Origin: an uncultured Candidatus Saccharibacteria bacterium
GTDB taxonomy: Bacteria > Patescibacteriota > Minisyncoccia > UBA6257 > 1-14-0-10-44-23
Assembly: GCA_964641225.1 (NCBI GenBank)
Contig: CAZXKC010000001.1
Location: forward strand, 131,602-195,601
Reading direction: 5' to 3'
Length of the DNA stretch: 64,000 nucleotides
Made by a program: the position numbers and the translations under genes. This document shows, one piece after another, positions 1 through 63,530 of the stretch (within the stretch, counting starts at the first letter, position 1; every line of letters starts with the position of its first letter). The notes below the pieces were generated by a model. The model had not been told where the DNA came from. It worked only from the letters and a program-made list of their open reading frames with translations, and ran no database searches.

Positions 1-39
1 TATATTCTTATCGGCAAACTTGTCACTACTGAGGATTCT

Positions 40-1056
40 TTGATCACGATGGAGGTTTCTCGTACCGCAGAAAGCAATTTGCGGATTGCTGCCGATACGC
101 TTGCGACACTTTCTTCGCTTCCGCATAGCAGCGAGATTAGCCCGATCGCTGAGTTTTCGGGCGAAATAGAGGTTGCTTCAACTACGGGGTTGGTGACGGT
201 TCGTCTCGTTAATCCGAGCTATTTTCGTTTGACCGGAACAAAGGCCTCTATCGGCGAGGCCCCTCAAGAGTCTACTCCCGGCATACTACTTACAAGCCAG
301 GCGGCAAAGCTTCTTGGGTTGCCCGCCGATCAAACTATTATTGGTTCGGTGGCGCATATCAAGGTTGATTATGATGAGAGCGGAGGATCAAAAGTTGAGC
401 AGGTTGGTCTTATCAAGCCGTTGCCGGTTGCCGGTATTCTCAGCGATGACGCTCAGCCGCCTACGCTTATCGTTCCGCTTTCGCAGGTTGCAAAAGCGCC
501 GCCGTATTTTAAGTCTGTCCTCGTCAAGGCAGAGACGATCGATACAGTGGTACCTTTGCGTGATCAATTGCTTAGCGATGGGTTTGCGGTATTGGCTCGT
601 ATTGATCTTGTTAATCAGGCCCGCCAGGTGACCAATATTTTCACTATTGTTTTGGCGATTTTCGGTATTACAGCCCTTATTGTTTCATCCCTGGGAATGC
701 TTAATACTATGATCGTCGGATTTATGGAGCGTATTTACGAAGTAGGTGTTATGAAGTCGCTCGGCGCTACAGATGGCGATATCAAAAAAATGTTTTTAAT
801 GGAGGCGTCGCTCATGGGATTTTTAGGCGGTGTCTGCGGCGTCATTCTCGGTGTCGGCGGCGGTGCACTTATTAATGTGCTGCTTTCCGCCGTAGCTCGT
901 CATTTTGGAGGATCTTCGATTAACCTGTTTATGACTCCTTGGTGGTTTATTGTTTTTATTCTTTTTACATCATTTTTCATTGGTATGATTTCCGGTTTTT
1001 GGCCGGCAAAACGTGCAGCATCTCTTTCGCCAAAGGAGGCATTTATTCGAAAGTAA
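40..1056 (+). CDS. ABC transporter permease, FtsX/MacB family (periplasmic domain plus C-terminal 4-TM FtsX domain); probably 5'-truncated by window edge or internal start
   Basis: ORF translation: hydrophobic FtsX-like C-terminus with GxxxG-rich TM helices; paralogous to permease at 48562..49785. Confidence 0.6.
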   Translation: MITMEVSRTAESNLRIAADTLATLSSLPHSSEISPIAEFSGEIEVASTTGLVTVRLVNPSYFRLTGTKASIGEAPQESTPGILLTSQAAKLLGLPADQTIIGSVAHIKVDYDESGGSKVEQVGLIKPLPVAGILSDDAQPPTLIVPLSQVAKAPPYFKSVLVKAETIDTVVPLRDQLLSDGFAVLARIDLVNQARQVTNIFTIVLAIFGITALIVSSLGMLNTMIVGFMERIYEVGVMKSLGATDGDIKKMFLMEASLMGFLGGVCGVILGVGGGALINVLLSAVARHFGGSSINLFMTPWWFIVFILFTSFFIGMISGFWPAKRAASLSPKEAFIRK

Positions 1057-1229
1057 AAGTGGAAGCGCAAAAAGTTTTTTACGATAGTACGAGGAAGTTC
1101 CTGCTCGAAGGCGAGGGTCAGCGGTATGCCGTACAACTGAAATAAATTACCGCTGTTACTCGTAAATAAGAGAGGGTTGCTTGTGGTTTTAGGGCTAAAA
1201 AGGTGCTATAATGCTAGAGAAAGAAGCTA

Positions 1230-1259
1230 TTGACAAAATAGCATATAGTATGCTATAAT
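1230..1259 (+). promoter_or_regulatory. sigma70-like promoter TTGACA-N18-TATAAT; 35-bp identical copy on minus strand at 27743..27772
   Basis: TTGACA at 1230-1235, TATAAT at 1254-1259; spacer holds palindrome atagcata/tatgctat. Confidence 0.5.
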
Positions 1260-1414
1260 ATACTATATGCGGTGTAGGGCCTGGTGCTGATCAAATCAGC
1301 TTCAAGCTCTGCCTCGCACGGTGCAAGGTAGACCCGAGGTCCAGGGGATGGACGGTTGGCGAAAGCCAACACCCGCGCTGGTTATAACGACCAGAAACGG
1401 AAAGGAAAAGAGTC

Positions 1415-1627
1415 ATGAGTCAGCAGCTTACGAGGGAGCAGGTCGTCAAAGACCTGTTCGACGGCAATGAGCAGGAGCTCGTCAGCCGGTTTGCAGAGGT
1501 CGCGTGGGCGCCCGAGTCCCACATGATCAGTCTCGATGTGAAGGGGTCTCTCGGTCTGCTCACGCAGATCGACGCGGAGAACTTCACGCTCGAGATCGCC
1601 GGCGATTTTGCCGGCGCTTGGCGGTAG
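1415..1627 (+). CDS. hypothetical small protein (70 aa), GC-rich cassette A
   Basis: ORF downstream of promoter with ~155-nt GC-rich structured leader; GGAAAGGAAAAG then ATG; followed by hairpin terminator. Confidence 0.35.
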   Translation: MSQQLTREQVVKDLFDGNEQELVSRFAEVAWAPESHMISLDVKGSLGLLTQIDAENFTLEIAGDFAGAWR

Positions 1628-1642
1628 TCCGCCTGAGTCACC

Positions 1643-1688
1643 GCGGCGCAGTTGGGTCTCCGACCCTCTGCGCCGCTTCGCTTTTTTT
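1643..1688 (+). terminator. intrinsic terminator (GC stem gcggcgcag/ctgcgccgc plus T-run)
   Basis: inverted repeat followed by cttttttt. Confidence 0.5.
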
Positions 1689-1873
1689 GCCCATGACATT
1701 TCTTCTCGGCGCTAGCCGGTAAGATTAAAAATGTCTTGGCGCATGCCGCGAAACCATGTATGCATGTTGTTTCGGCGGCACACTTCTGGTATCCTTTTCT
1801 CTATGCCGGGCAGTAGAGATGCGCCAACTGCCTTCGGCTAGTTTACAATCAAAGGCGCATCACACTTCCCGGC

Positions 1874-2383
1874 ATGCAAAAGTATATTATTTTTATTGTT
1901 GTTGCAGGTATTATCATTATCGGGGCGATGATGCTTAAAAAGCCGAGTCAGCCGGTTGCTGTTGTTTCAGACGACGCATATGCGGCATCTACATCGACTG
2001 AGTCAGTTGTTTCTGGTACAGCTGTTATAAACCCTAAACCAATTACTATGGCAAACGGATTAATCATTGAAGATGTAAAAATCGGTAACGGAGAGGAGGC
2101 AAAGAGCGGTATGCTTGTGAGCGTTCACTACGTAGGCACGCTGACAAATGGAAAAAAGTTTGACAGCTCGCGCGATCGCGGTGAGCCATTCCAGTTTCCG
2201 CTTGGTCAGGGGTACGTTATCAAAGGCTGGGATCTTGGCGTTGCCGGTATGAAAATCGGCGGCATTCGTAAACTGACTATTCCGGCTGAGCTTGGCTATG
2301 GTGCCGCTGGTGCAGGCAGTTCTATCCCGCCAAACGCAACGCTTAATTTTGAAGTTGAGTTGCTTGGTTTGCGTTCTCACTAA
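1874..2383 (+). CDS. FKBP-type peptidyl-prolyl cis-trans isomerase with N-terminal signal/anchor
   Basis: motifs VHYVGTLTNGKKFDSS, YVIKGWDLGVAGMKIGGIRKLTIP typical of FKBP domain. Confidence 0.8.
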   Translation: MQKYIIFIVVAGIIIIGAMMLKKPSQPVAVVSDDAYAASTSTESVVSGTAVINPKPITMANGLIIEDVKIGNGEEAKSGMLVSVHYVGTLTNGKKFDSSRDRGEPFQFPLGQGYVIKGWDLGVAGMKIGGIRKLTIPAELGYGAAGAGSSIPPNATLNFEVELLGLRSH

Positions 2384-2496
2384 GACGGTTGTACAAATTC
2401 CCCGGTTCGCCGGGGAATTTGCTTATTTTTAAAAATTTTGGTATTCTTTATTCACTGAAATTTGGCCGCTGGCCTTTTTTGTTTCCAGCATTATTT

Positions 2497-4287
2497 ATGG
2501 CAAGTCCTAATATCCGCAACATTGCAATCATCGCCCACGTTGACCACGGTAAAACAACCTTGGTTGATGCGCTTTTAAAACAGTCTGACAACTTCACCAT
2601 GAAGGTTAACGGCAGCGGCGAACTGATCATGGACAATAACGAGCTTGAGCGCGAGCGCGGTATTACGATTTTGGCAAAGAATGCTGCGATTAGTTATAAA
2701 GGAACGAAGATCAACATAGTGGATACGCCAGGTCACGCAGACTTCGGCGGTGAGGTGGAACGCATTATGAGTATGGTAGACGGCGTGCTGCTTTTGGTTG
2801 ACTCGCAAGAAGGGCCGATGCCACAGACCAAGTTCGTGTTGAAAAAAGCGATTGAGGCCGGACACAAGGCGATTGTTGTCGTAAACAAGATTGATAAGCC
2901 GGCGGCTCGGCCGCAGTGGACGCTCGACGAGACGTTTAGTTTGTTCGTTGATCTTGGTGCCTCAGATGAGCAGGCGCATTTTCCGGTTGTCTACGCATCA
3001 GGCATCGCCGGTAAGGCGGGACTTGAGCCGGATATCACGAAGATGAAGGATGTCACGCCGCTGTTTGATAAAATTTTGGAATATATTCCGGCGCCGGTGG
3101 TTGATGAAAAAGCGCCGCTGCAAATGCTGACGATCAACCTTGCTCACGATACGTATAAAGGAAAGATGGCAATCGGCCGATTGCACTCTGGTACCTTAAA
3201 GCCGGCTCAGCAGGTAATGCACATTGATCGCGCTGGAAAGATGAAAAAGGCGCAGCTGACCAACGTGATGATTTTTGATGGTATGAATCGTAAAGAGGCC
3301 ACCGAGGTAGTTGCCGGAGATATTTGTGCAATTGCCGGAATTCCAGATATCACCATCGGCGAAACGATTGCTGACATTAACGACCCGCGTCCGCTCACGC
3401 CGATTAAAATCGACGAGCCGACGATTAAGGCCGTGTTTATGGTGAACAAGAGTCCGTTTGTGGGTAAAGAAGGACAATACATTACGAGCCGCAATATTAA
3501 AGAGCGATTGGAGCGTGAGACGGAAACTGATGTGGCTCTTAAAATGGAGACGACGGAGGACTCAGACCGTTGGATTATGTCCGGTCGCGGTGAATTGCAC
3601 TTGGCGATTTTGATTGAAAAAATGCGTCGCGAGGGATTTGAGCTTGCTGTTGGTAAGCCGCAGGTAATTTATAAAGAAATTGATGGTGTGAAAAATGAGC
3701 CATTTGAGCTTGTAAGTATTGAGGTACCTAACGACTCTGTCGGCGTCGTAATCCAGGACTTTGGTCAGCGCCTTGGCGAGATGCGGCATATGACGGCCGA
3801 TGGTCCGATTACGAAACTTGAATTTTCAATTCCAACCCGCGGTTTGATCGGATACCGCAGTGATTTTATGACGCGCACAAAAGGACTTGGAATTATGAAC
3901 ACGATTTTTGATGCGTACAAGCCAATGAAAGGAGAGATTACGAAGTTGCCGCACGGTTCGCTTATTGCTACTGAAACAGGCGAGGCAACGAATTACGGAT
4001 TGTTGATGGCGCAGGAGCGCGGTGTGCTCTTTATTGCCGCCGGTACAAAGATTTACGGCGGAATGGTTGTTGGTAAAAATGCAAAAGATATGGATTTGCG
4101 CGTGCATGTCGGTCGCGAAAAGCAGTTGACTAACTTCCGTGCAAAGAACGAGGGTATTGGCGCATTTTTGGAGGCACCGACTGAGATGACGCTTGAGGAT
4201 TCTTTGGAATATATTGCTGATGATGAAATCGTGGAGGTGACACCGAAGTCAATTCGAATTCGAAAGATGGATTTGAAGGCGAAGTAG
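2497..4287 (+). CDS. typA: translational GTPase TypA/BipA
   Basis: [22 protein letters not shown]-motifs; 596 aa from internal Met (ORF track start 2389 likely too early). Confidence 0.85.
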   Translation: MASPNIRNIAIIAHVDHGKTTLVDALLKQSDNFTMKVNGSGELIMDNNELERERGITILAKNAAISYKGTKINIVDTPGHADFGGEVERIMSMVDGVLLLVDSQEGPMPQTKFVLKKAIEAGHKAIVVVNKIDKPAARPQWTLDETFSLFVDLGASDEQAHFPVVYASGIAGKAGLEPDITKMKDVTPLFDKILEYIPAPVVDEKAPLQMLTINLAHDTYKGKMAIGRLHSGTLKPAQQVMHIDRAGKMKKAQLTNVMIFDGMNRKEATEVVAGDICAIAGIPDITIGETIADINDPRPLTPIKIDEPTIKAVFMVNKSPFVGKEGQYITSRNIKERLERETETDVALKMETTEDSDRWIMSGRGELHLAILIEKMRREGFELAVGKPQVIYKEIDGVKNEPFELVSIEVPNDSVGVVIQDFGQRLGEMRHMTADGPITKLEFSIPTRGLIGYRSDFMTRTKGLGIMNTIFDAYKPMKGEITKLPHGSLIATETGEATNYGLLMAQERGVLFIAAGTKIYGGMVVGKNAKDMDLRVHVGREKQLTNFRAKNEGIGAFLEAPTEMTLEDSLEYIADDEIVEVTPKSIRIRKMDLKAK

Positions 4288-4372
4288 ATATTGAGGAGCT
4301 CTGACGATCATCGCCGGGGTTCCATTTCGCTGCTTGCTCGTCTGGCTCTAAGCCTGTATTATCAATTGAGCG

Positions 4373-5458
4373 ATGACAAGCCGTACTATTCAACTTTCCT
4401 TCTTTTTTATTATCTTTGGCATTACGACGTTGCTGGGTTTTTTCATTTTCAAGCCTTATTTGAACACGCTAGTTCTTGCGGGAACATTTGCAATTATTTT
4501 TTATCCTTTGCACCTTCGTTTAGAACGTAAGTTTGGCGGAAAGCATCCTAGTATTGCTGCAGCGATCACTGTTATCCTTGCCAGTCTAGTCATTTTCGTT
4601 CCCGCTTCGTTGCTTGGTACTCGCGTATACCAAGAGGCAGCAGCGCTCTATCAGCGTCTGAGTGATTCGACCGCGCGTGAACAGGCACCACTACCACCCG
4701 CCTCAGAGAACGCGAGTCCATTCGTGTTACAAATTCGGGAGAAGATCGATAGCGGTATCACAACTTTTATGAGTACTTTGAATAGCTCTATCCATCAATC
4801 TTTTGGTTGGGTGCTTAGTAACGCAGGAGATTTTTCGCGGCGCATTGGTGATATAGGTATTCGTTTCTTTATCTGGTTTTTAGCATTTTATTATTTCTTA
4901 CGCGACGGACATCGTCTTCGCAAAATATTCGTTACCCTGAGTCCGCTTTCCGATAAATATGATAATGAAATTGTTGTCCGTATTACTTCATCTGTTAAGA
5001 GCGTGATCGGCGGATCCCTTATCGTAGCTATTATTCAAGGAGTTGCAGCAGGCGTGGGTATGTGGATTTTTGGAGTGCCATCTCCGGCAATCTGGGGAGC
5101 AGTCGCAGTGCTGGCAGCTCTCGTGCCGACAGTCGGCACCGCGCTCGTTATCTTGCCTGCAGCCGGTTATCTGTTTCTTTTGAGTAAAACAGTGCCAATG
5201 ATTGGCCTGCTTGTCTGGGGACTTTTAGTGGTCGGAATTATCGATAACGTTTTGAGGCCAAAACTCATAGAGCGAGATACAAAAATCCATCCGCTTATCG
5301 TTTTGCTTTCTGTGCTTGGCGGCATTGCCTTACTTGGCCCCGTTGGCTTCCTTATTGGCCCTATCGTTATGAGCCTGCTTTTGGAATTTTTAGCAATTTA
5401 TAATGAGATGATTCTGCATCACAAAAATGCAGCCTTCGAAAACAACCTCTCTTCTTAA
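4373..5458 (+). CDS. AI-2E family transporter (PerM/YhhT-like) membrane protein
   Basis: multi-TM protein with characteristic length/topology; inference from hydrophobicity pattern. Confidence 0.6.
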   Translation: MTSRTIQLSFFFIIFGITTLLGFFIFKPYLNTLVLAGTFAIIFYPLHLRLERKFGGKHPSIAAAITVILASLVIFVPASLLGTRVYQEAAALYQRLSDSTAREQAPLPPASENASPFVLQIREKIDSGITTFMSTLNSSIHQSFGWVLSNAGDFSRRIGDIGIRFFIWFLAFYYFLRDGHRLRKIFVTLSPLSDKYDNEIVVRITSSVKSVIGGSLIVAIIQGVAAGVGMWIFGVPSPAIWGAVAVLAALVPTVGTALVILPAAGYLFLLSKTVPMIGLLVWGLLVVGIIDNVLRPKLIERDTKIHPLIVLLSVLGGIALLGPVGFLIGPIVMSLLLEFLAIYNEMILHHKNAAFENNLSS

Positions 5459-6002
5459 GGCCGGCGGAGTTGGCGTGCTTGCTACTGACACAATTTACGG
5501 TGTAGTCGGCCAAGCTACTAACCGCGAGACTGTCGCACGTTTGTATACGGTGCGCAGGCGAAGCCCGGAAAAACCGTTTATTGTTTTGATTAGCGATTTG
5601 GGTGATTTGATGCAGTTCGGCGTCCATTTACGAGTAAATGAAGAGGCGCTTGTAAGAAAATTATGGCCCGGATCGGTTAGTATTGTGCTTCCGTGCGCGA
5701 GCGATGATTTTTTCTATTTGCATCGCGGAACAAAGACTTTGGCATTTCGTATGCCCAAACCGCTTGTACTGCGCAAGCTCATTGCCGAGACGGGACCGCT
5801 TGTTGCGCCAAGCGCAAACATTGAAGGCCAGCCTCCGGCGACAACTCTTGAAGAGGCTCGTGCATATTTTGGCGATCAGGTTGATTTTTATGAGGATTCT
5901 GGGAAGGTTGAGGGTGCTGCTTCAACCCTGGTTGAGATAAAGAACGGGAAGGTGCATGTTTTGCGTGAAGGTTCGGCGGTGATTCCAAAAGCTTTATTAT
6001 GA
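5427..6002 (+). CDS. tsaC: L-threonylcarbamoyladenylate synthase (Sua5/YrdC/TsaC family)
   Basis: TDTIYGVVG ... RLYTVRRRSPEKPFIVLISD YrdC-fold motifs; start uncertain (overlaps upstream gene). Confidence 0.65.
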   Translation: MQPSKTTSLLKAGGVGVLATDTIYGVVGQATNRETVARLYTVRRRSPEKPFIVLISDLGDLMQFGVHLRVNEEALVRKLWPGSVSIVLPCASDDFFYLHRGTKTLAFRMPKPLVLRKLIAETGPLVAPSANIEGQPPATTLEEARAYFGDQVDFYEDSGKVEGAASTLVEIKNGKVHVLREGSAVIPKALL

Positions 6003-6715
6003 AAAAGAAAGTTGCAGTCTTCGACATAGACGGGACTATCTTTCGTAACTCGTTGTTAATCGAGCTTCATTGGAAAATGGTTAAAGAGGGGATTATTCCG
6101 CGCACGACTATCACTAAGATAGATAAGTTGTATTGGCAATGGGTGCGACGAAAGGGAAGCTACGATGACTACTTGTGGTCAGTCATAGAAAATTTTGATA
6201 CACACATTGCGGGAGTGCCTGTTAAAACGGTTGCGAAACTTGCCCGTAGAGTTGTTAAAACTCAAAGCGATATTGTATATCGGTATACGCGTGACTTAGT
6301 TAAGCGTTTGTCGAAAACGCACATATTGGTAGCTATTTCGGGCTCGCCGGAAATCATCGTTAAAGAATTTGCGCGAACTTGGAAGTTTGATTATTTTATC
6401 GGAACTTTGCACGCTACAGAGCGCGGTTATTTTACAGGCGAAAAAAAGTGGGTTGCTTCGGAGGACAAGGCAGCCGCACTTGCGTTTTTAGAGCAGCGTC
6501 ACGGTTTTAAAGTAGGCAAAGGCTCTGTGGGCGTCGGTGACACCGAAAGTGATATTAAGATTTTTGAGTTAGTGGAAAACCCAATTTGTTTTAATCCGAC
6601 AGGGGATTTATATAAGACCGCAGCACGCAAAGGTTGGCACATCGTAGTTGAGCGAAAAGATACCGTGTTTGAAATTAAAAAAGGAAAGGTGCTTCAATCG
6701 CATGGAGAAGAGTAG
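5999..6715 (+). CDS. HAD-superfamily hydrolase (HAD-IB/phosphoserine phosphatase-like)
   Basis: N-terminal VAVFDIDGTI motif I, GDTESD motif. Confidence 0.6.
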   Translation: MKKKVAVFDIDGTIFRNSLLIELHWKMVKEGIIPRTTITKIDKLYWQWVRRKGSYDDYLWSVIENFDTHIAGVPVKTVAKLARRVVKTQSDIVYRYTRDLVKRLSKTHILVAISGSPEIIVKEFARTWKFDYFIGTLHATERGYFTGEKKWVASEDKAAALAFLEQRHGFKVGKGSVGVGDTESDIKIFELVENPICFNPTGDLYKTAARKGWHIVVERKDTVFEIKKGKVLQSHGEE

Positions 6716-7640
6716 CTACGACGTTATCGTTATTGGTGCCGGGCCTGCAGGGTGGAGTGCGGCTACATTTCTAGTACGTGCGAATATTAAGACGCTCGTG
6801 ATTGGTGATTTGGCGCAGAGCGGGCTTGCGGACGCCGCTGATGTGCAAAATTTTGTTGGATTTCCAAAAGGCATCGCCGGTACAGAGCTGCTTGATCAGA
6901 TGCGACAGCAGGCAACTGGGCAGGGAGCAACTTTTTTAAAAGGTGAGGTAACGCATGTGGAAAAGATCAACAATAGACAAGAAACAAAAAACAATTTTTT
7001 GGTACGAACTGCTGCGCGCGAGGAGTTTGTTGCAGAACGTTTGCTTCTTGCGCATGGCGCTAATTTTATTAAGGTGAATTTACCGGGTGAAAAAGAGTTA
7101 GTTGGTAAGGGAATCCACTACTGTGCCCTTTGTGATGGGCCACTCTATAAAGGAAAGGAGGTGATTGTGCTTGGAAATGGTAATTATGCTGCTGAGGAGG
7201 CCTTACAACTTGTCGGGATGGGGGCAAAGGTGAAAATTATTACCCACGCCATAGAACCGAATATTGCGCCGGTGTATCAAAAGCTTTTGGCCGCTCAAAA
7301 AATTTCTCTCACGATCGGTAAAGCAGAAAAATTTGGGCCGGGCATTACAATCTCTTTAAAAAAGAAAGATGGCGTAGTTGAAGAAAAAACTGATGCAGTA
7401 TTTATTGCCTTAGGAGTCGCCTCATCGATGGTATTCGCGCAGAAGCTTGGCTTAGAGATGAACGGTAACTTTTTGAAGGCTGACGAAAACGGTCGCACGA
7501 ATGTTGCCGGTGTCTGGGTTGCTGGTTTAGCGCGCGGCGGAGTTAACCAAGTTGCAAAGTCAGTAGGCGAGGGCGCCTCTACTGCGGTTGATATAATTAA
7601 AGCTATTACTGGTCTACCTCAATATCTAGACCACACTTAA
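6702..7640 (+). CDS. trxB: FAD-dependent pyridine nucleotide-disulfide oxidoreductase, thioredoxin reductase-like
   Basis: YDVIVIGAGPAG FAD motif and redox CALCDG (CxxC) motif; start taken at internal Met. Confidence 0.6.
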   Translation: MEKSSYDVIVIGAGPAGWSAATFLVRANIKTLVIGDLAQSGLADAADVQNFVGFPKGIAGTELLDQMRQQATGQGATFLKGEVTHVEKINNRQETKNNFLVRTAAREEFVAERLLLAHGANFIKVNLPGEKELVGKGIHYCALCDGPLYKGKEVIVLGNGNYAAEEALQLVGMGAKVKIITHAIEPNIAPVYQKLLAAQKISLTIGKAEKFGPGITISLKKKDGVVEEKTDAVFIALGVASSMVFAQKLGLEMNGNFLKADENGRTNVAGVWVAGLARGGVNQVAKSVGEGASTAVDIIKAITGLPQYLDHT

Positions 7641-7644
7641 TAGC

Positions 7645-7753
7645 CGTAATTTTGCGCATTTCGTTGTTGCTTTGCTGCGAACCTCCTTCGCCGTACGACT
7701 ACTGTACGGCTCAGTCGTTTCTCGCTCGCGCCTAGAACTGCATCAAAATTACG
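7645..7753. repeat. ~110-nt structured intergenic repeat element, copy 1 (core GCGCATTTCGTTGT...CCTAGAACTGCATC with terminal inverted repeats)
   Basis: shares conserved core with 27217..27331; flanking and internal stems differ in sequence but remain complementary. Confidence 0.5.
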
Positions 7754-7793
7754 ACTATTATTTCGTTGTCGTTTCTATTATCATTGTAAATGT

Positions 7794-24722: not shown

Positions 24723-25433
24723 ATGGACGAACAAAAACCACAACAGAATACGAATCCAGCTCCGGCAGCCTCTGCCGCCGCAGCTCCGAAGGCAGCGGCC
24801 CCAGTCGCTCGTCCAGGCTTTGATCGCCGCCCAGGTGGTCCAAATCGTGGCGGCCCAGGAGGTATGGGAGGTCGCTCGCGCGGTCCGGGAGGTCCTGGCG
24901 GAGGTCAGGGTCGTCCAGGCGGCCGTGGCGGATCTCGCGATAATCGTCCGTTTGTAAAGAAAGACGATTTCCAAGAACAGACGCTTGATATGCGCCGCGT
25001 CGTACGCGTTATGGCCGGTGGTAAGCGTTTCCGTTTCCGTGCAACGATGGTTATCGGTGACCTTCGCGGACGCGTTGGTGTCGGTATGGGTAAGGGACTC
25101 GACGTGCAGCAGGCAATTGCAAAAGCAAAGCGTGATGCCCAGAAGCACCTGATCGTTGTTCCGCTTTCAAAGCGTACGATTCCGCACGAGGTTGAGGCAA
25201 AGTTTTCAGCCGCTCGTATTCGCTTAAAGCCAGCTCGTGAAGGACACGGATTGGTTGCCGGTGGTGCTGCCCGCGCTGTGCTCTCGCTTGCTGGCATCAA
25301 AGATGTCACCGCCAAGACACTTGGCCGCACGCCAAACCAGGTGACTAACGCGCTTGCAACCTTTGAAGCTCTCAAGCAGCTCAAGGCTCGTAAACCAAAA
25401 GTTGAAAAGAAAGAGGTAGTCGAAGCTAAATAA
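24723..25433 (+). CDS. rpsE: 30S ribosomal protein S5 with ~70-aa Gly/Pro/Arg-rich N-terminal extension
   Basis: S5 dsRBD core RVVRVMAGGKRFRFRA. Confidence 0.9.
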   Translation: MDEQKPQQNTNPAPAASAAAAPKAAAPVARPGFDRRPGGPNRGGPGGMGGRSRGPGGPGGGQGRPGGRGGSRDNRPFVKKDDFQEQTLDMRRVVRVMAGGKRFRFRATMVIGDLRGRVGVGMGKGLDVQQAIAKAKRDAQKHLIVVPLSKRTIPHEVEAKFSAARIRLKPAREGHGLVAGGAARAVLSLAGIKDVTAKTLGRTPNQVTNALATFEALKQLKARKPKVEKKEVVEAK

Positions 25434-27216: not shown

Positions 27217-27331
27217 CTCGCGCATCTGGCGCATTTCGTTGTCGCCGCGCTGCGCTTCTCGTTCGACGTATTTAAAAAATACGCCTCACTCGCTGCTCGC
27301 TAGCTCCTAGAACTGCATCCAGATGCGCGGG
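27217..27331. repeat. ~110-nt structured intergenic repeat element, copy 2 (after secY)
   Basis: conserved core with copy 1; outer IR gcgcatctgg/ccagatgcgc followed by gttttgg (may terminate secY transcript). Confidence 0.5.
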
Positions 27332-27422
27332 TTTTGGTGTTAGTCTGAAATTTATCTAAATATCGTGTTCTGAAAATCAGAGCCGGCTGGTCCCCGAAGG
27401 GATCCGGCCGGTTTCTTGTTCT

Positions 27423-27695
27423 CTACTTCGGGAGCATCTTGCCGACCACGAGGCCGGCCGTGAAGATCTCCGTCAGAAGTTGGTGTTCAGCCGATCCTTC
27501 GATGTTGGCTCGACTCAGGAATTCTGCGGTCTTCTGCTCCGCCTCTGGCGTGAGCATTAACGAATACACTCCGAAGCCGAGCGGACGGTTGAGGTCTGCT
27601 TCTCTGGGGATGATCCTGCCAGCCCCGTCGTTAAGGATCAGTACTGCTTGGCCGCCGAGATTTCTCTCGATTCCGGCCTGTCCAAAACGGTACAT
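27423..27695 (-). CDS. hypothetical small protein (~90 aa), GC-rich cassette D
   Basis: RBS GGAGGAG 5 nt before ATG at 27695; alternative starts 27707/27725; hairpin terminator 27368-27410. Confidence 0.4.
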   Translation of the reverse strand: MYRFGQAGIERNLGGQAVLILNDGAGRIIPREADLNRPLGFGVYSLMLTPEAEQKTAEFLSRANIEGSAEHQLLTEIFTAGLVVGKMLPK

Positions 27696-27742
27696 TCTCT
27701 CCTCCATTTCCCGATTCGGCAACACGCCTCATCGTAATATTT

Positions 27743-32237: not shown

Positions 32238-32347
32238 ACATGCGTTCCCAGCTTGACCTATGTGGGTTAGGTGGAGAAGGTAGATAACGCTTTAATAGGG
32301 CAAAATAAGCGTTATCGAAAGAGCCATTTGCCTGGAGGACCGCTGCT

Positions 32348-33217
32348 ATGCGGATCCATTCGTTCATTCCCAAGATGTTCGTCGGAATCATCGTCGCGCT
32401 CGGCGTGGCCCTCTGCATCAGCTTCACGCCGGCGCAGGCGGGCCAGAACAACCGGCGGATCACCGGCACCGTCACCATCCGCGCCCAGGCCGATTCGGTC
32501 GGGGAGGTGGATGGGCGGTACCGGCTCCGCTTCGGCAGGGTCGAGACGCGCAACGATCAGGAGCCGCACTGGGGGAAGAGCAACTTCCGCATCAGGGGTT
32601 CCAACGTGATCAAGAAGGTCTTCCGTGCGACGGGTCTGTTCGGGCTTCGGCTCGACAGCGTCAACCCGGAGACCAGGGTCGCGACGGAGTTCTACCAGAA
32701 CAACGACTTCGAGCTCAGGCGTGGCCTGCGCAACGACGTCGTGGTGGATCTCGTGCCCGACGACGGCACGACCAATCCGCCGCCGACTGGTACGTTCACC
32801 AGCGGGTTTCACATCAACAACGTGAACCTCGCGGCGATCTACTTCGTCCGGCTCACGAAGAATGTGACCGGCGGAGAAAGCGTGACCTACGCGATGCGTC
32901 CGGCCAGCAATCCCGGGTCGCCCACGGAATTCGATCCGGTCACCGCCGGAGAGGCCGCCGAGATCACCCCGCTGATCTTCGGACCGGGCGGGTGGGTGCC
33001 GGTGTCGACGGCAACGTCGTACAACATCGACCTGCTCGCGCAGGACGGCCTGGCGGTCATCAAGTCGCTGCCCAATCAGTCGTTCGTCCCCGGACAGGTG
33101 ACGACGATCGGCGCGGCCAGTGCCTCGAAGATGTTCGTTCGTCGTGCCCCGATGGTCATCGTGGACGGCGTCGTCATCAATCCGAAGACGGTCTCGGTCG
33201 GCGTGGTTCAGCCGTAA
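32348..33217 (+). CDS. hypothetical secreted protein (289 aa), GC-rich cassette E
   Basis: signal peptide MRIHSFIPKMFVGIIVALGVALCISFTPAQA; RBS GGAGG; hairpin terminator 33239-33266. Confidence 0.55.
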   Translation: MRIHSFIPKMFVGIIVALGVALCISFTPAQAGQNNRRITGTVTIRAQADSVGEVDGRYRLRFGRVETRNDQEPHWGKSNFRIRGSNVIKKVFRATGLFGLRLDSVNPETRVATEFYQNNDFELRRGLRNDVVVDLVPDDGTTNPPPTGTFTSGFHINNVNLAAIYFVRLTKNVTGGESVTYAMRPASNPGSPTEFDPVTAGEAAEITPLIFGPGGWVPVSTATSYNIDLLAQDGLAVIKSLPNQSFVPGQVTTIGAASASKMFVRRAPMVIVDGVVINPKTVSVGVVQP

Positions 33218-33292
33218 CCGAGAACATGTAGCACCGAACCTGGCACCTCCGAAAGGGGGTGCCAGGCAAGGAACTTCTTTCTCTGTACATAC

Positions 33293-33321
33293 TTGACAAA
33301 ATACAATTTCTTTACTATAAT
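33293..33321 (+). promoter_or_regulatory. promoter TTGACA-N17-TATAAT for surface protein 1
   Basis: 33293-33298 and 33316-33321. Confidence 0.5.
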
Positions 33322-37722: not shown

Positions 37723-37751
37723 TTGACAAAATTAATAAAGGGTGCTATAAT
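37723..37751 (+). promoter_or_regulatory. promoter TTGACA-N17-TATAAT for surface protein 3
   Basis: 37723-37728 and 37746-37751; GGTGCTATAATG shared with 1201-1212. Confidence 0.5.
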
Positions 37752-37759
37752 GTACTTAT

Positions 37760-39877: not shown

Positions 39878-40009
39878 TTTTTGTTGACAAAATTCATATT
39901 TTAGAGCATTTTATACTTGGACCCTCGCGTGAGGAGCCCTGCCGCCTCGACAGGTTCGAGGCAGTACGGGCGCACTACGCGACCGTTCCTGAAACAGGAG
40001 GACAGCGCG

Positions 40010-40672
40010 ATGCGCTACTTCATCAACGGCATGTTCCTGCAGATGGGAGAAGGAATCGGTGTGCGGACTATTCCGGGCGCGGGTTCGGTTGCTGTCTTCG
40101 AGACCAAGACCCGCGGCTACATCTTCAACGGCGTCATCCAGCGCCTGAATTCCAGCAATCCCTGGACCGGCTGGGTGCTCGACCACTTCGGCTACGCGAC
40201 GCTCACCAACATCGTCTTCGGCGACGGCGAGCTGCGCTTCACCAAGAAGTACGAAGGTTGCGACGACGAGATCCACTGCACCTTTCGCAAGCACCCCGAC
40301 GCCGAGGCGGTGCTCGTCGGCTACTACGAGGGCGTGGACACGGGCAAGAACACCGCCTGGTGCATGATGACCGGGGTGTCAGATCGCATGTTCGACGAGG
40401 GCGTCATCAAGGGGCTGGCAGCCGGACAGCCCAAGCTGCCGATTGTAACACTGGACGCCGATCAGGAGCGCGAGTGGAGGGAGTACAAGCGAGCGGGTGG
40501 CACTCTGCCCGCGGCTGAAATCCCGCGCGTCAACGAGATTGTTCAGCTCTGCGCTCCAGACGGCCGCTCCATCGCGACGGCGTACCTCAACTCGAACGAC
40601 ATCAAGGGCGGTCTGCCCGACGGACGTACCAATGTCACAGTCAGTGCGACCGTGAGAACCAGGTTCTGCTAG
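40010..40672 (+). CDS. hypothetical protein (220 aa), GC-rich cassette G
   Basis: RBS AGGAGG before ATG 40010; TTGACA at 39884; terminator 40679-40735 (gagacccgca/tgcgggtctc plus TTCGTTTTT). Confidence 0.5.
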   Translation: MRYFINGMFLQMGEGIGVRTIPGAGSVAVFETKTRGYIFNGVIQRLNSSNPWTGWVLDHFGYATLTNIVFGDGELRFTKKYEGCDDEIHCTFRKHPDAEAVLVGYYEGVDTGKNTAWCMMTGVSDRMFDEGVIKGLAAGQPKLPIVTLDADQEREWREYKRAGGTLPAAEIPRVNEIVQLCAPDGRSIATAYLNSNDIKGGLPDGRTNVTVSATVRTRFC

Positions 40673-40784
40673 AGCAACGAGACCCGCAAGGGCGTCGAGA
40701 GACGCACGCTCTGCGGGTCTCTCTTCGTTTTTGACCATTCGTTCAAAATCTGATATTATTGAATAACGCTGGCTGGGCCGGCGT

Positions 40785-44247: not shown

Positions 44248-44817
44248 ATGACACAGGACTTAACCGACGAGGAAATCGCGGCGCTTGTACAAAAAGGCGA
44301 TGTTGATGCCTTTGGGGAACTGATTGCGCGCTTTGATCAAAAAATGACGCGATATGCCCGGAAATTTCTCTTCCAGGGCGAGGACGTAAAAGATCTCGTA
44401 CAAGAGGTTTTTATAAAGGCATACGTGAATATCAAGAGTTTTGACGCGGCGCGCCGTTTTTCGCCGTGGCTGTATCGTATTGCTCATAACGAGTTTATTA
44501 ATGCCGTTAAAAAGAAAAGCAGATTGCCGTTTTTTTCGTTTGATTTTGATACTGTATTACCGCAACTTGTTGCGCCTGAAACTGCAGACGGAGAGATGGC
44601 AAAGGCCGAGATCAAAATTATGCTGGATCGCTGTCTTGATAAGCTGAGTCCGAAATATCGTGAGCCACTTGTTTTGTATTATATTGAGGAGATGGATTAT
44701 AAGGAGATCGCCGAGATTTTAAAGCTGCCGGTTGCCACTGTGGGCGTGCGTCTGAACAGAGGTAAGGCGATGCTACGAAAGGTCGTAACTACATTAACTA
44801 CTGAATATGGAAAATAA
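44248..44817 (+). CDS. RNA polymerase sigma factor, ECF (sigma-70 regions 2 and 4)
   Basis: region 2 RIAHNEFINAVKK, region 4 YREPLVLYYIEEMDYKEIAEIL. Confidence 0.8.
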   Translation: MTQDLTDEEIAALVQKGDVDAFGELIARFDQKMTRYARKFLFQGEDVKDLVQEVFIKAYVNIKSFDAARRFSPWLYRIAHNEFINAVKKKSRLPFFSFDFDTVLPQLVAPETADGEMAKAEIKIMLDRCLDKLSPKYREPLVLYYIEEMDYKEIAEILKLPVATVGVRLNRGKAMLRKVVTTLTTEYGK

Positions 44818-45496
44818 CACATCATTTAAACAAGAGGTTTTAGAGGCGATTAAAGAGCGTCATGTGGCAATGCGTCCGCGGTGGCAATTTATACTTGCCG
44901 GCGTACTCGCAGTGATCGGTGGAATTTTGATTGCACTGGTGCTTCTGTATTTAGTTAGTTTTATTATCTTTGTGCTGCGGCAGACGGGTGTTGGCTTTGT
45001 TCCAAGCTTTGGAGCGCGCGGCTGGTTTGCCTTTTTTGTATCCCTGCCGTGGCTTTTAATCTTATTTGCGACGATATTTGTCGTGATTTTAGAGATTTTG
45101 GTGCGTCGTTATGCATTTGCGTATCGCCGGCCGCTGCTCTATTCGGTATGTTGTATTCTTGCGCTTGTAATCGTCGGAGGATTTTTTGTTGCCTCGACGC
45201 CGCTGCACCGAAAACTTTTTGTATCGGCCGAAGAGCAGCATCTACCGTTTGGGGCACCGTTCTATCGGGGATTTGGCGATCGCGAGTTTGGAAATATTTT
45301 CCGCGGGCGAGTAGTGGCAACAACAACCGAGGGATTTGTGCTTCAGGGGCGCCGCGGACCGCTGATGATTATTGTTACGCCTCAAACCCAGTTGCCGTTT
45401 GATACGGAGTTTTTGCCGGGCAATATCGTTGTTGTTTTTGGTGATCGCTCAAGCAGTACTATTGAGGCGGTTGGTGTGCGAACTATTGGTGAGTAG
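44807..45496 (+). CDS. membrane protein, candidate anti-sigma factor (overlaps sigma gene stop)
   Basis: translationally coupled to ECF sigma; multiple TM segments. Confidence 0.4.
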   Translation: MENNTSFKQEVLEAIKERHVAMRPRWQFILAGVLAVIGGILIALVLLYLVSFIIFVLRQTGVGFVPSFGARGWFAFFVSLPWLLILFATIFVVILEILVRRYAFAYRRPLLYSVCCILALVIVGGFFVASTPLHRKLFVSAEEQHLPFGAPFYRGFGDREFGNIFRGRVVATTTEGFVLQGRRGPLMIIVTPQTQLPFDTEFLPGNIVVVFGDRSSSTIEAVGVRTIGE

Positions 45497-51002: not shown

Positions 51003-51290
51003 TTAGGGGATATTATTTTTTCGTTGTCTGGCAGCACTGTTGATCATGCTGATTTTTTGCGCTCGGGATAATTTTTTGATCGCTATTTCGCGGGAGAGGG
51101 CTTTTCCTTTGCTGCGAAATGTTTGCGTAAATATAATTGTATCTGGCGGGTGCGAACGCGTATATTTAGCGCCGGTGCCACGCATATGTGCTTTGAGGCG
51201 CTTTTTTAAGTCGTTAGTAATGCCGGTATAGAGGGTTTTATCTTTGCACAGAAGAATATATACGACATATGTCTTTCGGAGACGTTTCAT
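51003..51290 (-). CDS. GIY-YIG nuclease family protein (small, UPF0213-like)
   Basis: YVVYILLCKDKTLYTG ... GIY-YIG motifs. Confidence 0.75.
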   Translation of the reverse strand: MKRLRKTYVVYILLCKDKTLYTGITNDLKKRLKAHMRGTGAKYTRSHPPDTIIFTQTFRSKGKALSREIAIKKLSRAQKISMINSAARQRKNNIP

Positions 51291-56918: not shown

Positions 56919-57122
56919 ATGGCGATTATTATCAACATCGACGTTATGCTGGCTAAGCGCAAGATGAGCGTTACTGAACTCGCTGACCGAGTCGGCATCA
57001 CCATGGCCAATATCTCTGTTTTGAAAAATGAAAAGGCCAGAGCAATTCGTTTTTCAACGCTCGAGGCAATTTGCAAGGCGTTAGATTGCCAACCCGGGGA
57101 TATTTTAGAGTACAAAAAATAG
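56919..57122 (+). CDS. helix-turn-helix transcriptional regulator (XRE/YozG-like)
   Basis: MSVTELADRVGITMANISVLKNEK HTH. Confidence 0.75.
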   Translation: MAIIINIDVMLAKRKMSVTELADRVGITMANISVLKNEKARAIRFSTLEAICKALDCQPGDILEYKK

Positions 57123-57183
57123 TCGAGACTCTGCGCTTCGGCTTTATTGCTAAAACCGGACTACGGTATGGTATAATATAACC

Positions 57184-57870
57184 ATGACTAATAGTCCGGA
57201 TTTAAAAAGCCGTGCAATCACTCTGCGTAAACAAGGGCTTACGTATTCAGAGATTATGGCGCAAATTCCTGTTGCTAAATCAACTCTATCTGACTGGCTG
57301 CATTCGGTAGGCTTGGCAAAACTCCAAAAACAGATTCTTACCGAAAAGAAAAAATTAGGACAACAGCGTGCTGCAGCGGCGAAAAGAACGCAAAGAATAG
57401 AAAAGGAATCTGCGATTAGAGTGGGAGCAAAATCTGAAGTTGCACATTTGATTAAAGACCCTTTGTGGCTTTTAGGTGTCGTTCTCTATTGGAGCGAAGG
57501 CAGTAAGCAGAAAGCATGGACTACATCAATGGGAGTTCGTTTTATGAATATGGATCTGGAGGCCCATAGACTCTTTATAAAATGGAGTAAAAAATATTTA
57601 AATACGAGCCCGGAATATTTTCGGTTTGAAATTTATATTCATGAAAAAGCCAACATTGAAAAAGCAAAAAGTTATTGGTCAAAAAATTTGAGTATCCCAA
57701 CAGAAGAAATTCGGATCTATTATAAAAAGCATAATCTCAACCCAAACAGGAAAAATATACATCAAGATTATTATGGAGTTCTTAGAACATCAATCAGTAA
57801 AAGCACGGATTTAAATAGGAAGATTGCAGGTTGGACTGAGGGTGTGATAAAGTACTTCCAACAGAAATAG
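57184..57870 (+). CDS. hypothetical protein with N-terminal HTH; possible LAGLIDADG-like motif (LGVVLYWSEGSK)
   Basis: LRKQGLTYSEIMAQIPVAKSTLSDWL HTH-like; endonuclease assignment speculative. Confidence 0.35.
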   Translation: MTNSPDLKSRAITLRKQGLTYSEIMAQIPVAKSTLSDWLHSVGLAKLQKQILTEKKKLGQQRAAAAKRTQRIEKESAIRVGAKSEVAHLIKDPLWLLGVVLYWSEGSKQKAWTTSMGVRFMNMDLEAHRLFIKWSKKYLNTSPEYFRFEIYIHEKANIEKAKSYWSKNLSIPTEEIRIYYKKHNLNPNRKNIHQDYYGVLRTSISKSTDLNRKIAGWTEGVIKYFQQK

Positions 57871-57878
57871 AAGCTGAT

Positions 57879-57949
57879 TGGGGGGTCGTCTAACGGCAGG
57901 ACTCCAGGTTTTGGTCCTGGCTATGAGGGTTCGATTCCTTCCCCCCCAA
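57879..57949 (+). tRNA. tRNA-Gln (anticodon TTG)
   Basis: cloverleaf folded by hand: 7-bp acceptor tgggggg/cccccca, D-stem gtct/ggac, anticodon stem ccagg/cctgg with loop ttTTGgt, T-arm gaggg-TTCGATT-ccttc; no encoded CCA. Confidence 0.8.
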
Positions 57950-57952
57950 CAT

Positions 57953-58576
57953 ATGAAAATTCTTCACAGAGTTGAATCGATAGAGGCCAAAAGGACTTTT
58001 GTGGTTGCTGATTACATCACACAAAGAAAGACTACTGGTAATAATCGCAAGTTCCTCAAAGACGTATCAGAAAAAGAATTTAGTGAAAAATTGATCCAAG
58101 CGAAGAAAGTAATACTGAAGTTGGATGAAAAAGATTTGGATAGGCTTGTGAGTCCAAAATGGCCCAAGAGAATTAAAGCATACAACAATAGCCAGTGGTT
58201 TTTAGCACAAGTTAGCGCGAAAGAAGTAGGAGTTTGGCGTCGAGCCGGAAACTTACCTTTACAATGGACAAACGGTTCACTTTTTGAAACTGCAGGAAAA
58301 GTTAAAGCTGCCTTGATGACAAATTCGAAGCTGCTAAAGCAGCGACCAAAGCACAGCATTCCGAATATTTTAAAAATAAAAACTCATTTAGAACAGAAAG
58401 AAAAATACTTATACCCGATTGTTTTTAAGACTGATACGGGTACAAAAGGTAGAAAGCGATTGAAAAATAAAACGAAGGGTGATATTGATGACGGTTGCAT
58501 GCGCTCTATCGCTCTAGCTATCAGCGGTAGAAATCCTATAACTGTTTATTTCGGGATTCCTAAAAAAGAGACTTAA
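57953..58576 (+). CDS. hypothetical basic protein
   Basis: ORF starting 4 nt after tRNA 3' end. Confidence 0.4.
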   Translation: MKILHRVESIEAKRTFVVADYITQRKTTGNNRKFLKDVSEKEFSEKLIQAKKVILKLDEKDLDRLVSPKWPKRIKAYNNSQWFLAQVSAKEVGVWRRAGNLPLQWTNGSLFETAGKVKAALMTNSKLLKQRPKHSIPNILKIKTHLEQKEKYLYPIVFKTDTGTKGRKRLKNKTKGDIDDGCMRSIALAISGRNPITVYFGIPKKET

Positions 58577-58585
58577 TAACTTTCT

Positions 58586-59023
58586 ATGCCTGAATTAAAA
58601 ACAAAGGTGAATACGGCCAGTGTCGAGAAATTTTTGCACACGATTAAAGACGAGCATAAGCGCGCTGATTGCTTTGTTATCTCTAAGATGATGGAGAGAG
58701 CGACAAAATCTAAGCCGGAAATGTGGGGTACATCGATCGTTGGCTTTGGTCGCAGAACGTATACGTATGCAAATGGTAAAACGGGAGAGTGGATGGTTAT
58801 CGGCTTTGCCCCGCGCAAACAAAATATTGCGCTCTACGGTTTAAAAGTTTTTGAAATGACAAAAGGTGGCTTGAAAGAGCCCAAAGGAGCAAATGATTTT
58901 CTCTTAACCCTAGGAAAATATAAAGAAGGCGGCGGCTGTCTCTATATCAATACGCTCTCCGACGTTAACACGAAGCAGCTTGAGAAAATCATCACGCTCG
59001 CGGTACGTCGTAGCAAACAATAG
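58586..59023 (+). CDS. DUF1801 (YdhG-like) domain protein
   Basis: N-terminal VEKFLHTIKDEHKRADCFVISKMMER ... motif; family assignment from memory. Confidence 0.5.
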   Translation: MPELKTKVNTASVEKFLHTIKDEHKRADCFVISKMMERATKSKPEMWGTSIVGFGRRTYTYANGKTGEWMVIGFAPRKQNIALYGLKVFEMTKGGLKEPKGANDFLLTLGKYKEGGGCLYINTLSDVNTKQLEKIITLAVRRSKQ

Positions 59024-60224: not shown

Positions 60225-60274
60225 GAGGATAATTTGTACTTATAGTATAGAAGGTAACAAGAATTTGCACGCTA

Positions 60275-60303
60275 TTGACAAATAAGTAATAGTGTGCTAT
60301 AAT
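60275..60303 (+). promoter_or_regulatory. promoter TTGACA-N17-TATAAT for cassette I (divergent from dnaX)
   Basis: 60275-60280 and 60298-60303. Confidence 0.5.
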
Positions 60304-60389
60304 GAACTTAACCGCATGGTGCGGGGGTTTGCGATTTTTTTTCTCAGGGATCGAGGCTTCACGGCCTCATGTAGTAGGGAGGTAGTTCG

Positions 60390-61238
60390 ATGCAGGAGCT
60401 GAATGTCACGGCAGTGGTTCCGGACGTTGCGACGTTCGCCAAGGAACGTTGGGGCATCTCGATTCTCGATTGCGCGACCGAGCGGGAGCTGCGCGACCGA
60501 GTGTTCGAGAACGTTTTCCTCAAGACGACCAGCAAGGACTTCGTCGAGCGCATGATGGCTCTGGATGTCCTGTTCGGGATGAATCCAACCTTCCTGCAGT
60601 CTGACGAGGCGCGCGTGTGTCGTGAGTTCTGTCTCAAGGAGTTCGCGCCGAGCGTCGATGACTTCTGGGAGATCGTCAGGGCGCAGCCGTTCAAGCGCTT
60701 CTCGACGCTCCAGGCCTTCTGGCGACAGAAGGATCTGGACGAGAACGACCGCTACCGGAAGGAGCAGCAGGAGGCGCACGAGCGCTATCTCGCAGAACAG
60801 GAGCAGCGACGTCTGGACAATCAGCGCGAGAAGGCCAAGCGAGAGCACGAGGAGCGTCTCAAGCGCATGACCTCGTTCTCGAATCTGGAGAGCTTCCTGG
60901 CGGTCCAGAAGATCGTCCGCAAGACGGGGGAGTCGAATGTCAACCTGCGACAGCGGGCCTTCGTCGAACTCTTCCTGCGCAGCAACCGGATGGCCGAGGA
61001 GGTGCGTTTCGTCGCGCGGGCCGAGGCGATGGAGGTGCTGATCGGATTCCGTCCCAAGTACCTGCGCATCGATGACCTGCGATGGGCGGAGCGGTTCTGT
61101 GATCGGAACATGCTCCAGTCCAAGGACAGTCTCGAGGAGTTCGCATCCACCTGGCAGGAGCGTATGCCTTCAGCGGTCGATCTGCTCAAGCGGCTCGGCC
61201 TGAGTGCGAAGGTCATCGGAGAGGCTGTCGCGGCGTAG
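60390..61238 (+). CDS. hypothetical protein (282 aa) with central charged coiled-coil-like region, GC-rich cassette I
   Basis: RBS GGGAGG; leader contains hairpin plus T8 run (60311-60345); terminator 61261-61305. Confidence 0.5.
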   Translation: MQELNVTAVVPDVATFAKERWGISILDCATERELRDRVFENVFLKTTSKDFVERMMALDVLFGMNPTFLQSDEARVCREFCLKEFAPSVDDFWEIVRAQPFKRFSTLQAFWRQKDLDENDRYRKEQQEAHERYLAEQEQRRLDNQREKAKREHEERLKRMTSFSNLESFLAVQKIVRKTGESNVNLRQRAFVELFLRSNRMAEEVRFVARAEAMEVLIGFRPKYLRIDDLRWAERFCDRNMLQSKDSLEEFASTWQERMPSAVDLLKRLGLSAKVIGEAVAA

Positions 61239-61318
61239 CGACGGAGACAGAACATCAACTGAGGCGCGGTGACCACATGGTCGCCGCGCCTCTTAACTTT
61301 TTATAGTAGACTATATAG

Positions 61319-62695: not shown

Positions 62696-62792
62696 TTAGC
62701 CGCACAAATTGGGTTGTTTTTAATCAAAAAATAGACCAATTTGTGCGGCTAAGAACTCACCGTGTGGTGAGAGCCGTGAGTTCTCTTTTTTC
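62696..62792 (+). promoter_or_regulatory. structured 5' leader: 17-bp perfect inverted repeat (ttagccgcacaaattgg / ccaatttgtgcggctaa) then terminator-like hairpin gaactcac/gtgagttc plus TCTTTTTTC
   Basis: read directly; sits between promoter and RBS GGAGGA. Confidence 0.5.
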
Positions 62793-62805
62793 GGAGGAAC
62801 AGCCC

Positions 62806-63462: not shown

Positions 63463-63488
63463 TCTCTCGGTTCCTCGTGCACCTGGTT

Positions 63489-63512: not shown

Positions 63513-63530
63513 ACTTGGTTCCTCGTTTTT

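Follow-up and report, generated by a model that had tools for sequence, protein, structure and literature searches.

The window analyzed here, a 64-kb stretch of DNA, is a gene-dense piece of bacterial chromosome that carries genes for an FtsX-like permease, FKBP, TypA, S12/S7/EF-G/EF-Tu, and the S10-spc cluster to SecY, together with PGK, a 23S-IVS protein, RNase T, and RNase H. The closest named homologs of its PGK belong to Harrisonbacteria and Paceibacterota, which makes a small chromosome of a Patescibacteria/CPR member the probable source. Two small units sit among these housekeeping genes, each made up of a promoter, a leader with an RBS, a GC-rich orphan ORF, and, as the predicted terminator, a GC-rich hairpin followed by a run of T (Table 1). 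The two ORFs are unrelated (BLASTP E = 20), with GC contents of 0.61 (ORF1) and 0.57 (ORF2) against 0.483 for the window. The initial annotation of this DNA had described two small GC-rich ORFs, unrelated to each other, as preceded by one and the same promoter, and this description held up: both copies, P1 and P2, are correctly oriented, and each ORF has its own RBS and terminator. The sister genome referred to throughout is GCA_964549935.1, in which the loci corresponding to units 1 and 2 are designated L063 and L057, respectively.

Table 1. Coordinates of the two promoter-ORF units and of related elements in the window
Feature	Coordinates	Strand	Basis or remark
Extended -10-like box GGTGCTATAATG, no good -35	1202..1213	+	upstream of P1
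Promoter copy P1	1227..1260	+	exact repeat, promoter scan, window/sister alignment
P1 -35 TTGACA	1230-1235	+	
Dyad ATAGCATA-TAG-TATGCTAT in P1 spacer	1238-1256	+	
P1 TRTGn motif TATGC	1249-1253	+	
P1 -10 TATAAT	1254-1259	+	
Structured 5' leader of unit 1, ~150 nt	1266..1414	+	fold z = -3.1
ORF1, 70-aa acidic orphan protein	1415..1627	+	GC1/2/3 = 0.65/0.37/0.82
Intrinsic terminator of unit 1	1643..1689	+	predicted fold; 90% identity to sister
Intrinsic terminator of unit 2	27373..27411	-	predicted fold
ORF2, 90-aa orphan protein	27423..27695	-	GC1/2/3 = 0.63/0.41/0.68
Short leader of unit 2	27696..27741	-	RBS block inside
RBS block GGGAAATGGAGG	27701-27712	-	common to sister locus L057
Promoter copy P2	27742..27775	-	exact reverse complement of P1
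P2 -10	27748-27743	-	
Dyad in P2	27746-27764	-	
P2 -35	27772-27767	-	
Possible third, diverged promoter-family member ctaTTGACAaataagtaATAGTGTGCTATAATg	60272..60304	+	heads GC-rich orphan ORF 60390-61238

The repeated sequence, CTATTGACAAAATAGCATATAGTATGCTATAATA, is 34 nt long and occurs exactly twice in the 64-kb window, at P1 and P2. The pair, separated by 26 kb and bounded by abrupt identity edges, is the longest inverted repeat of the window (pair I1), and a scan of the 64 kb at up to three mismatches found no further copy (0 in 100 shuffles). A repeat of 35 bp had originally been described; its exact identity was confirmed, whereas its length is 34 nt and its coordinates had been off by 1-2 nt. 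Also confirmed was the reading of a promoter-like module that is exactly duplicated, as both copies scored 12/12 in the promoter scan against TTGACA-N18-TATAAT, the best possible consensus, with TG preceding the -10. Orientation and distance to RBS and ATG are correct at both loci. Upstream of the -10 lies a TRTGn motif, which reads TATGC-TATAAT in the window and TGTGC-T(A/G)TAAT in the sister genome; TATG or TGTG before nTATAAT corresponds to the Gram-positive -16 consensus TRTG (PMC6570832). We infer that the 34-mer is a near-ideal sigma-70/sigma-A housekeeping promoter with predicted start sites. A Logan contig from run SRR14271336, an independent assembly, has its first bases inside the repeat (TGACAAAATAGC...), which is how a k=31 assembler behaves at a true repeat. 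A larger hairpin at 1241-1270, with 11-bp arms around the -10, is missing in copy 2 and in the sister genome and was discarded.

Much of this sequence is shared with other promoters of the same genome. Eight promoters in the window score at least 11/12, most of them reading (c/t)(t/a)(a/c)TTGACAaaata...tgcTATAATa, and this genome consensus covers about two-thirds of the positions of the 34-mer, its distinctive portion being ~10 nt of spacer. The hexamers and their flanks are common to the other six strong window promoters; since these, like the right arm of the spacer dyad, recur in window promoters or in the TRTG element, they are generic promoter features. The spacer itself is another matter: P1 and P2 agree at 18/18 compared positions, where other promoter pairs have a median of 7/18. 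Closest to them is the promoter at 60275, which has 13/18 spacer positions in common with them, and the ORF that it heads has a GC3 of 0.83 and no family match. The repetition of the box GGTGCTATAATG that had been noticed upstream of P1 was likewise found, the second copy lying at 37741-37752. This copy is the -10 of another consensus promoter (37723-37751), and the 12-mer is therefore the genome's extended -10 consensus; for the box at P1, a remnant and a weak tandem promoter are both conceivable.

The leader of unit 1 is predicted to fold into a multi-hairpin junction with GCGG/CCGC closing and a GAAA-loop hairpin, and a purine-rich RBS region, AAAGGAAAAGAG, lies immediately 5' of the ORF1 ATG. 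A consensus fold with the sister leader (L063 5854-6000) has 37 pairs, of which two show compensatory and two wobble-preserving changes and none is broken. The leader has no Rfam match, and a covariance model built for it found no further copy; it may be a functional RNA element, perhaps an undescribed cis-regulatory one. At the other end of the unit, the terminator consists of a stem, GCGGCGCAG...CTGCGCCGC, around an inner hairpin, followed by TTCGCTTTTTTT. In unit 2, the terminator reads CCGGCCGG...TTCG...CCAGCCGG, then CTCTGATTTT.

Neither ORF1 nor ORF2 has a match in Pfam, PHROG, or NCBIfam, and an initial search of 5.8 billion proteins returned only self-matches for both. For ORF2, no homolog other than itself was found among these 5.8 billion proteins. 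For ORF1, an exhaustive HMMER search identified a single close relative, P0123 (68 aa, 67% identity), which occupies the syntenic position in the sister genome and differs from ORF1 by indels that are all in frame. Nucleotide differences between the two number 16/13/25 at codon positions 1/2/3, and the changed codons comprise 9 synonymous and 22 nonsynonymous cases. ORF1 is conserved yet fast-evolving, at 67% amino acid identity. GC3 reaches 0.82 in ORF1 and 0.68 in ORF2, compared to 0.42-0.58 in core genes, and given the strong codon-position GC of both ORFs, the frames look coding and compositionally foreign. As a weak lead, residues 32-65 of ORF1 are ~35% identical over 34 aa to a cadherin-like/Big_9 repeat stretch of giant proteins. 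Single-sequence AlphaFold models (pLDDT 48 for ORF1 and 54 for ORF2) were too poor for a fold search. A phage or moron origin was considered and rejected: megablast of positions 1-6000 against a phage collection gave only a 66-nt match, viral-contig scans with both ORFs and the dyad pattern gave nothing relevant, PHROGs yielded no hits, and tblastn against plasmids and phages was negative.

Five more GC-rich islands (GC 0.60-0.62) lie in the window at 13451-14150, 32276-33300, 39901-40750, 60351-61325, and 62751-63625. Four of the five hold ORFs with a GC3 of 0.77-0.88, and the candidate frames of the remaining one, between fusA and tuf (13451-14150), have a GC3 of 0.61-0.69. Most islands are located behind consensus-type promoters and ahead of strong terminators. 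Their ORFs have no Pfam match, and the subset run against PHROGs and NCBIfam also gave no hit; in L057 and in another relative, L058, the position syntenic to the ORF at 32348-33217 is occupied by GC-rich ORFs that bear no relation to it. Several further features were recorded in the window. A perfect 21-nt inverted repeat (14102-14122 / 14203-14223) encloses 80 nt, its right arm abutting the -35 of the EF-Tu promoter (14223-14250), and a 144-nt direct repeat with 79% identity (63312-63455 and 63784-63927) has one copy at the end of the GC-rich ORF 62743-63462 and the other beyond it. Ribosomal protein S5 (24723-25100) carries a GC-rich, low-complexity Gly/Pro/Arg/Ala N-terminal extension of ~80 aa, and extensions of varying length occur in relatives too (S5 of 223-265 aa). 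An AT-rich stretch at 57000-59000 (GC 0.40), which contains a tRNA-Gln (57879-57950), an ORF with a sub-threshold HTH_23 match (57184-57870), and a DUF1801 ORF, may be the remnant of an integrated element. The ORF at 44807-45496, a candidate anti-sigma factor gene, begins inside the preceding gene, which encodes an ECF sigma factor (44248-44817), and a stand-alone 95-aa GIY-YIG nuclease ORF is found on the minus strand at 51003-51290.

Comparison with the sister genome shows how unit 1 is conserved. The P0123 unit lies directly 5' of FKBP-TypA-AI-2E, and its promoter (sister P1, L063 5818-5847), leader, and terminator are homologous to those of unit 1. Identity between window and sister is 20% upstream of the promoter, 87% in the promoter, 78% in the leader, 70% in the ORF (67% at the amino acid level), and 90% in the terminator. 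Synteny between the two genomes breaks exactly at the 5' edge of P1 (window 1227 versus L063 5815), with Obg of the sister replacing the FtsX-like gene of the window as the upstream neighbor, which suggests a rearrangement endpoint at the P1 repeat. Logan run SRR14271336 (L065 and L001/L059) yielded assemblies of both the window organism and the P0123-carrying sister, so the two lineages co-occur in one sample.

Syntenic loci for unit 2 were reached via PGK homologs; exact-protein lookups with FKBP, PGK, and S12 reached no relatives, and an FtsX-based metagenome scan returned distant relatives only. In the window and the fetched relatives, the gene order L14...S5-L15-SecY-[gap]-PGK-RNase T-RNase H is conserved, and the content of the SecY-PGK gap varies. 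Where the window has ORF2 (90 aa, minus strand), the same strand encodes a 161-aa secreted-type ORF in the sister locus L057 (PGK 86% identical), an 80-aa membrane ORF in L058 (70%), a 124-aa ORF in a JGI contig (76%), and a 120-aa ORF in a Logan contig whose PGK is identical to that of L058. The gap is empty in L060 and L061 (PGK 69%), spanning ~160 bp with no promoter, and in L062 (PGK 56%) it holds a different GC-rich ORF on the plus strand plus an EamA transporter gene. These cargo ORFs are mutually unrelated, and GC3 was 0.78-0.80 in L057 and L062, the two that were checked. When unit 2 of the window is compared with L057, the ORFs are unrelated and only two segments align, one running from the promoter through the RBS block (73 nt, 74% identity) and the other covering the terminator (40 nt, 78% identity).

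A long-hairpin element of ~110 nt occurs twice in the window, at 7645-7755 (after ORF 6648-7640) and at 27220-27330 (directly after SecY), and a third version follows SecY in the distant relative L062 (1436-1552). The inner arms are ~80% identical, and the basal and apical stems differ yet remain paired. Fold z-scores reach -4.1 in the window and -8.7 in L062, and there is no Rfam match for this element.

We then aligned five promoter sequences, namely, P1 and P2 of the window, P1 and P2 of the sister genome, and the L058 promoter as an outgroup. Over 34 positions, P1 and P2 show no difference in the window and two in the sister, while each window copy differs from its own sister ortholog at seven positions. 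Six of these seven sites coincide between the two loci, with an identical base in the two sister copies; a 6/7 overlap of sites would arise by chance with a probability of at most 6e-4, the same-base requirement not yet counted. With L058 as the outgroup, both copies of the window lineage acquired a 'cta' triplet 5' of the -35 and a T in the center of the dyad, and both copies of the sister lineage acquired T12 and G21 in the spacer. Identity between P1 and P2 ends after 34 nt in the window and after ~47 nt in the sister genome. The orthologous promoters in L063, L057, and L058 share the same positions, the same orientation, and the same 18-nt spacer. As both loci carry the promoter at the same two positions in the sister, the duplication predates the split, and the recent duplication proposed in the initial annotation was not borne out. 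P1 and P2 appear instead to be two old paralogs in concerted evolution, a conclusion resting on six shared sites because only two genomes have both loci.

In the mechanism that we propose, substitutions in or just upstream of the promoter would spread to both copies within a genome, most likely by gene conversion of short tracts, with the inverted repeats of 34-47 bp as partners. Gene conversion between short inverted repeats would be the simplest mechanism, and a homology of 34-47 bp is close to the lower limit for RecA-type recombination. Alternatively, co-evolution with a common trans-acting reader would give the same pattern. Both genes would be transcribed from the same strong promoter, and their co-regulation is possible. 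The regulatory shell (promoter, RBS, and terminator) is kept between species, with the ORF inside it either evolving fast, as in unit 1, or being swapped for unrelated GC-rich ORFs, as in unit 2. The perfect spacer dyad would mostly be a by-product of promoter elements, dispensable for explaining the data. Taken together, the best explanation, to which we assign a probability of about 0.6, is that P1 and P2 are old paralogous housekeeping promoters that head autonomous units and are homogenized in concert, each unit combining a conserved shell with a variable cargo.

The dyad deserves a separate discussion, as the spacer palindrome had been interpreted as an operator. A perfect dyad is indeed present, with an 8+3+8 layout that differs from the way it had first been split. 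Under the operator reading, a dimeric regulator would bind ATAGCATA-N3-TATGCTAT and co-regulate both orphan genes, the sites tracking its specificity. The dyad overlaps the spacer and the -10, a classic repressor position, and parallel changes in both copies would also be expected from site/factor co-evolution. Moreover, the prior chance of a perfect dyad in the spacer is low (~1e-3 by our estimate) and the parsimony ancestor of the three lineages has a perfect dyad as well, which keeps this reading alive. However, the right arm, TATGCTAT, coincides with the promoter element TRTGnTAT, that is, the -16 motif and the start of TATAAT, and in the left arm, the outer ATA is part of the TTGACAAAATA consensus found across the genome. 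All eight dyad pairs form in the window, compared to only 5/8 in L058 and in either sister copy, whose changes are asymmetric, with no matching change in the opposite arm; the changes of the window lineage, three upstream of the -35 and one at the dyad center, leave the arms untouched. No helix-turn-helix gene adjoins either unit, the neighbors being the FtsX-like gene, FKBP, TypA, SecY, PGK, and the 23S-IVS protein, and the only regulator candidates in the window are the ECF sigma factor and the sub-threshold HTH_23 match mentioned above. When GTDB species representatives, from which the source genome is absent, were scanned for the dyad together with the -10, 50 loci were found across a very diverse range of bacteria; the downstream genes are unrelated and the count is, by our estimate, about that expected by chance for AT-rich promoters, so the dyad is no conserved regulon signal. 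The operator proposal thus did not stand in its original form, and we regard it as possible but unlikely.

Other accounts of the repeat fare worse. That the copies are 100% identical with abrupt edges, and that promoter reuse before unrelated genes is documented (PMC3575422), would fit a single recent event confined to this genome, in which a mobile promoter was duplicated or inserted. Such an event is contradicted by L057 and L063, where the spacing between promoter and conserved leader and RBS is unchanged, and neither copy is flanked by a transposase, terminal inverted repeats, or a target-site duplication; we find this account highly improbable. Convergence of two independent promoters on the consensus by chance gains some ground from the ~2/3 of the 34 positions that match the genome consensus, and from the chance recurrence of TTGACAAA-ATAGCATA-N3-TATGCTATAAT in unrelated genomes at the 50 GTDB loci. 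Yet the ~10 non-consensus spacer positions are identical too, against a median of 7/18 in other pairs, and the copies co-vary between species, which makes convergence very unlikely, the least probable of all these readings. It could also be argued that the GC-rich segments are structured noncoding RNA genes and the ORFs accidental open frames: the predicted transcripts fold better than shuffles (z = -6.4 and -4.3), the coding part of ORF1 alone does so too (z = -4.2), long ORFs are open on both strands, and the AlphaFold models are poor. Against this stand the strong codon-position GC (Table 1), the well-placed RBSs, and the full-length protein ortholog of ORF1, with indels that keep the frame and changes that fall mostly in third codon positions. 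Furthermore, neither unit has an Rfam match even at E = 10, where only noise was obtained, making noncoding RNA genes an improbable explanation. Across the whole window, Rfam at the gathering threshold detected the tRNA-Gln only, and ARAGORN found no tmRNA.

If P1 and P2 are paralogs homogenized in concert, a regulatory repeat of 34-47 bp changes in step at two loci 26-32 kb apart, and, should gene conversion be the cause, very short promoter repeats can behave as a homogenized family. Promoter reuse is usually inferred from a single-genome snapshot, and the repeat is followed here in two species. The inverted promoter copies could also serve as points of recombination or rearrangement, a possibility to be seen together with the synteny break at the 5' edge of P1. 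The analysis further brings to light a group of GC-rich orphan genes that have strong promoters and occupy variable slots in the otherwise streamlined genome of a probable Patescibacteria member, and these genes are candidates for host-interaction or defense-related functions. More speculatively, the promoter/RBS/terminator shells might be integrase-free 'expression sockets' in Patescibacteria, gene-converted and providing homology arms for swapping GC-rich foreign ORFs. We consider this extension doubtful; if true, it would allow cargo exchange, for example, after natural transformation, with immediate expression from a strong resident promoter.

Each component of the units resembles something already described. 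The promoter is close to sigma-70/sigma-A promoters with a TRTGn element, as defined by Voskuil and Chambliss (cited in PMC6570832), in its perfect TTGACA and TATAAT, its TATG (window) or TGTG (sister), and the RBS and ORF downstream; it would function as a strong constitutive promoter of the sigma-A type. Its spacer in the window is 18 nt versus the optimal 17, and this spacer is conserved across species and identical between paralogs, neither of which ordinary promoters need. For putative mobile promoters, Matus-Garcia, Nijveen and van Passel (2012; PMC3575422) required an upstream stretch of 50 nt or more that is at least 80% identical, and such promoters share with P1 and P2 the presence of similar upstream sequence before nonhomologous genes in one genome without an insertion sequence. 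The identical stretch is shorter here, at 34 nt in the window and 47 nt in the sister, and the pair appears to be old and homogenized in two species, an aspect that the survey (PMC3575422) did not address.

Autonomy, a promoter and a terminator of their own, and a deviant GC content characterize phage morons (PMC3594210). The units described here are similar in having their own promoter and terminator around one ORF, in lying between conserved genes, in being present, absent, or different among relatives, and in deviating in base composition from their neighbors (ORF GC of 0.61 and 0.57). Unlike morons, they reside in the bacterial core genome (FKBP/TypA and SecY/PGK) rather than in a phage or prophage, their ORFs are GC-richer than the host genome, and their promoter is the host's own consensus. 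In an integron, a resident Pc promoter expresses exchangeable cassettes, and the SecY-PGK unit likewise has a resident promoter before cargo ORFs that differ between relatives. No integrase gene was called in L057, L058, L060-L063, or the window neighbors, however, and the borders of exchange are the RBS and the terminator instead of attI/attC, with one cargo per site. Concerted evolution of dispersed repeats by gene conversion is known from rRNA operons and tuf duplicates, where, as for P1 and P2, paralogs within a genome are more alike than orthologs between genomes. The tract is only 34-47 bp here, purely regulatory, and surrounded by unrelated flanks on both sides. What appears to be new with respect to promoter reuse and to moron-like accessory units is the demonstrable concerted evolution of a regulatory repeat as short as 34-47 bp.
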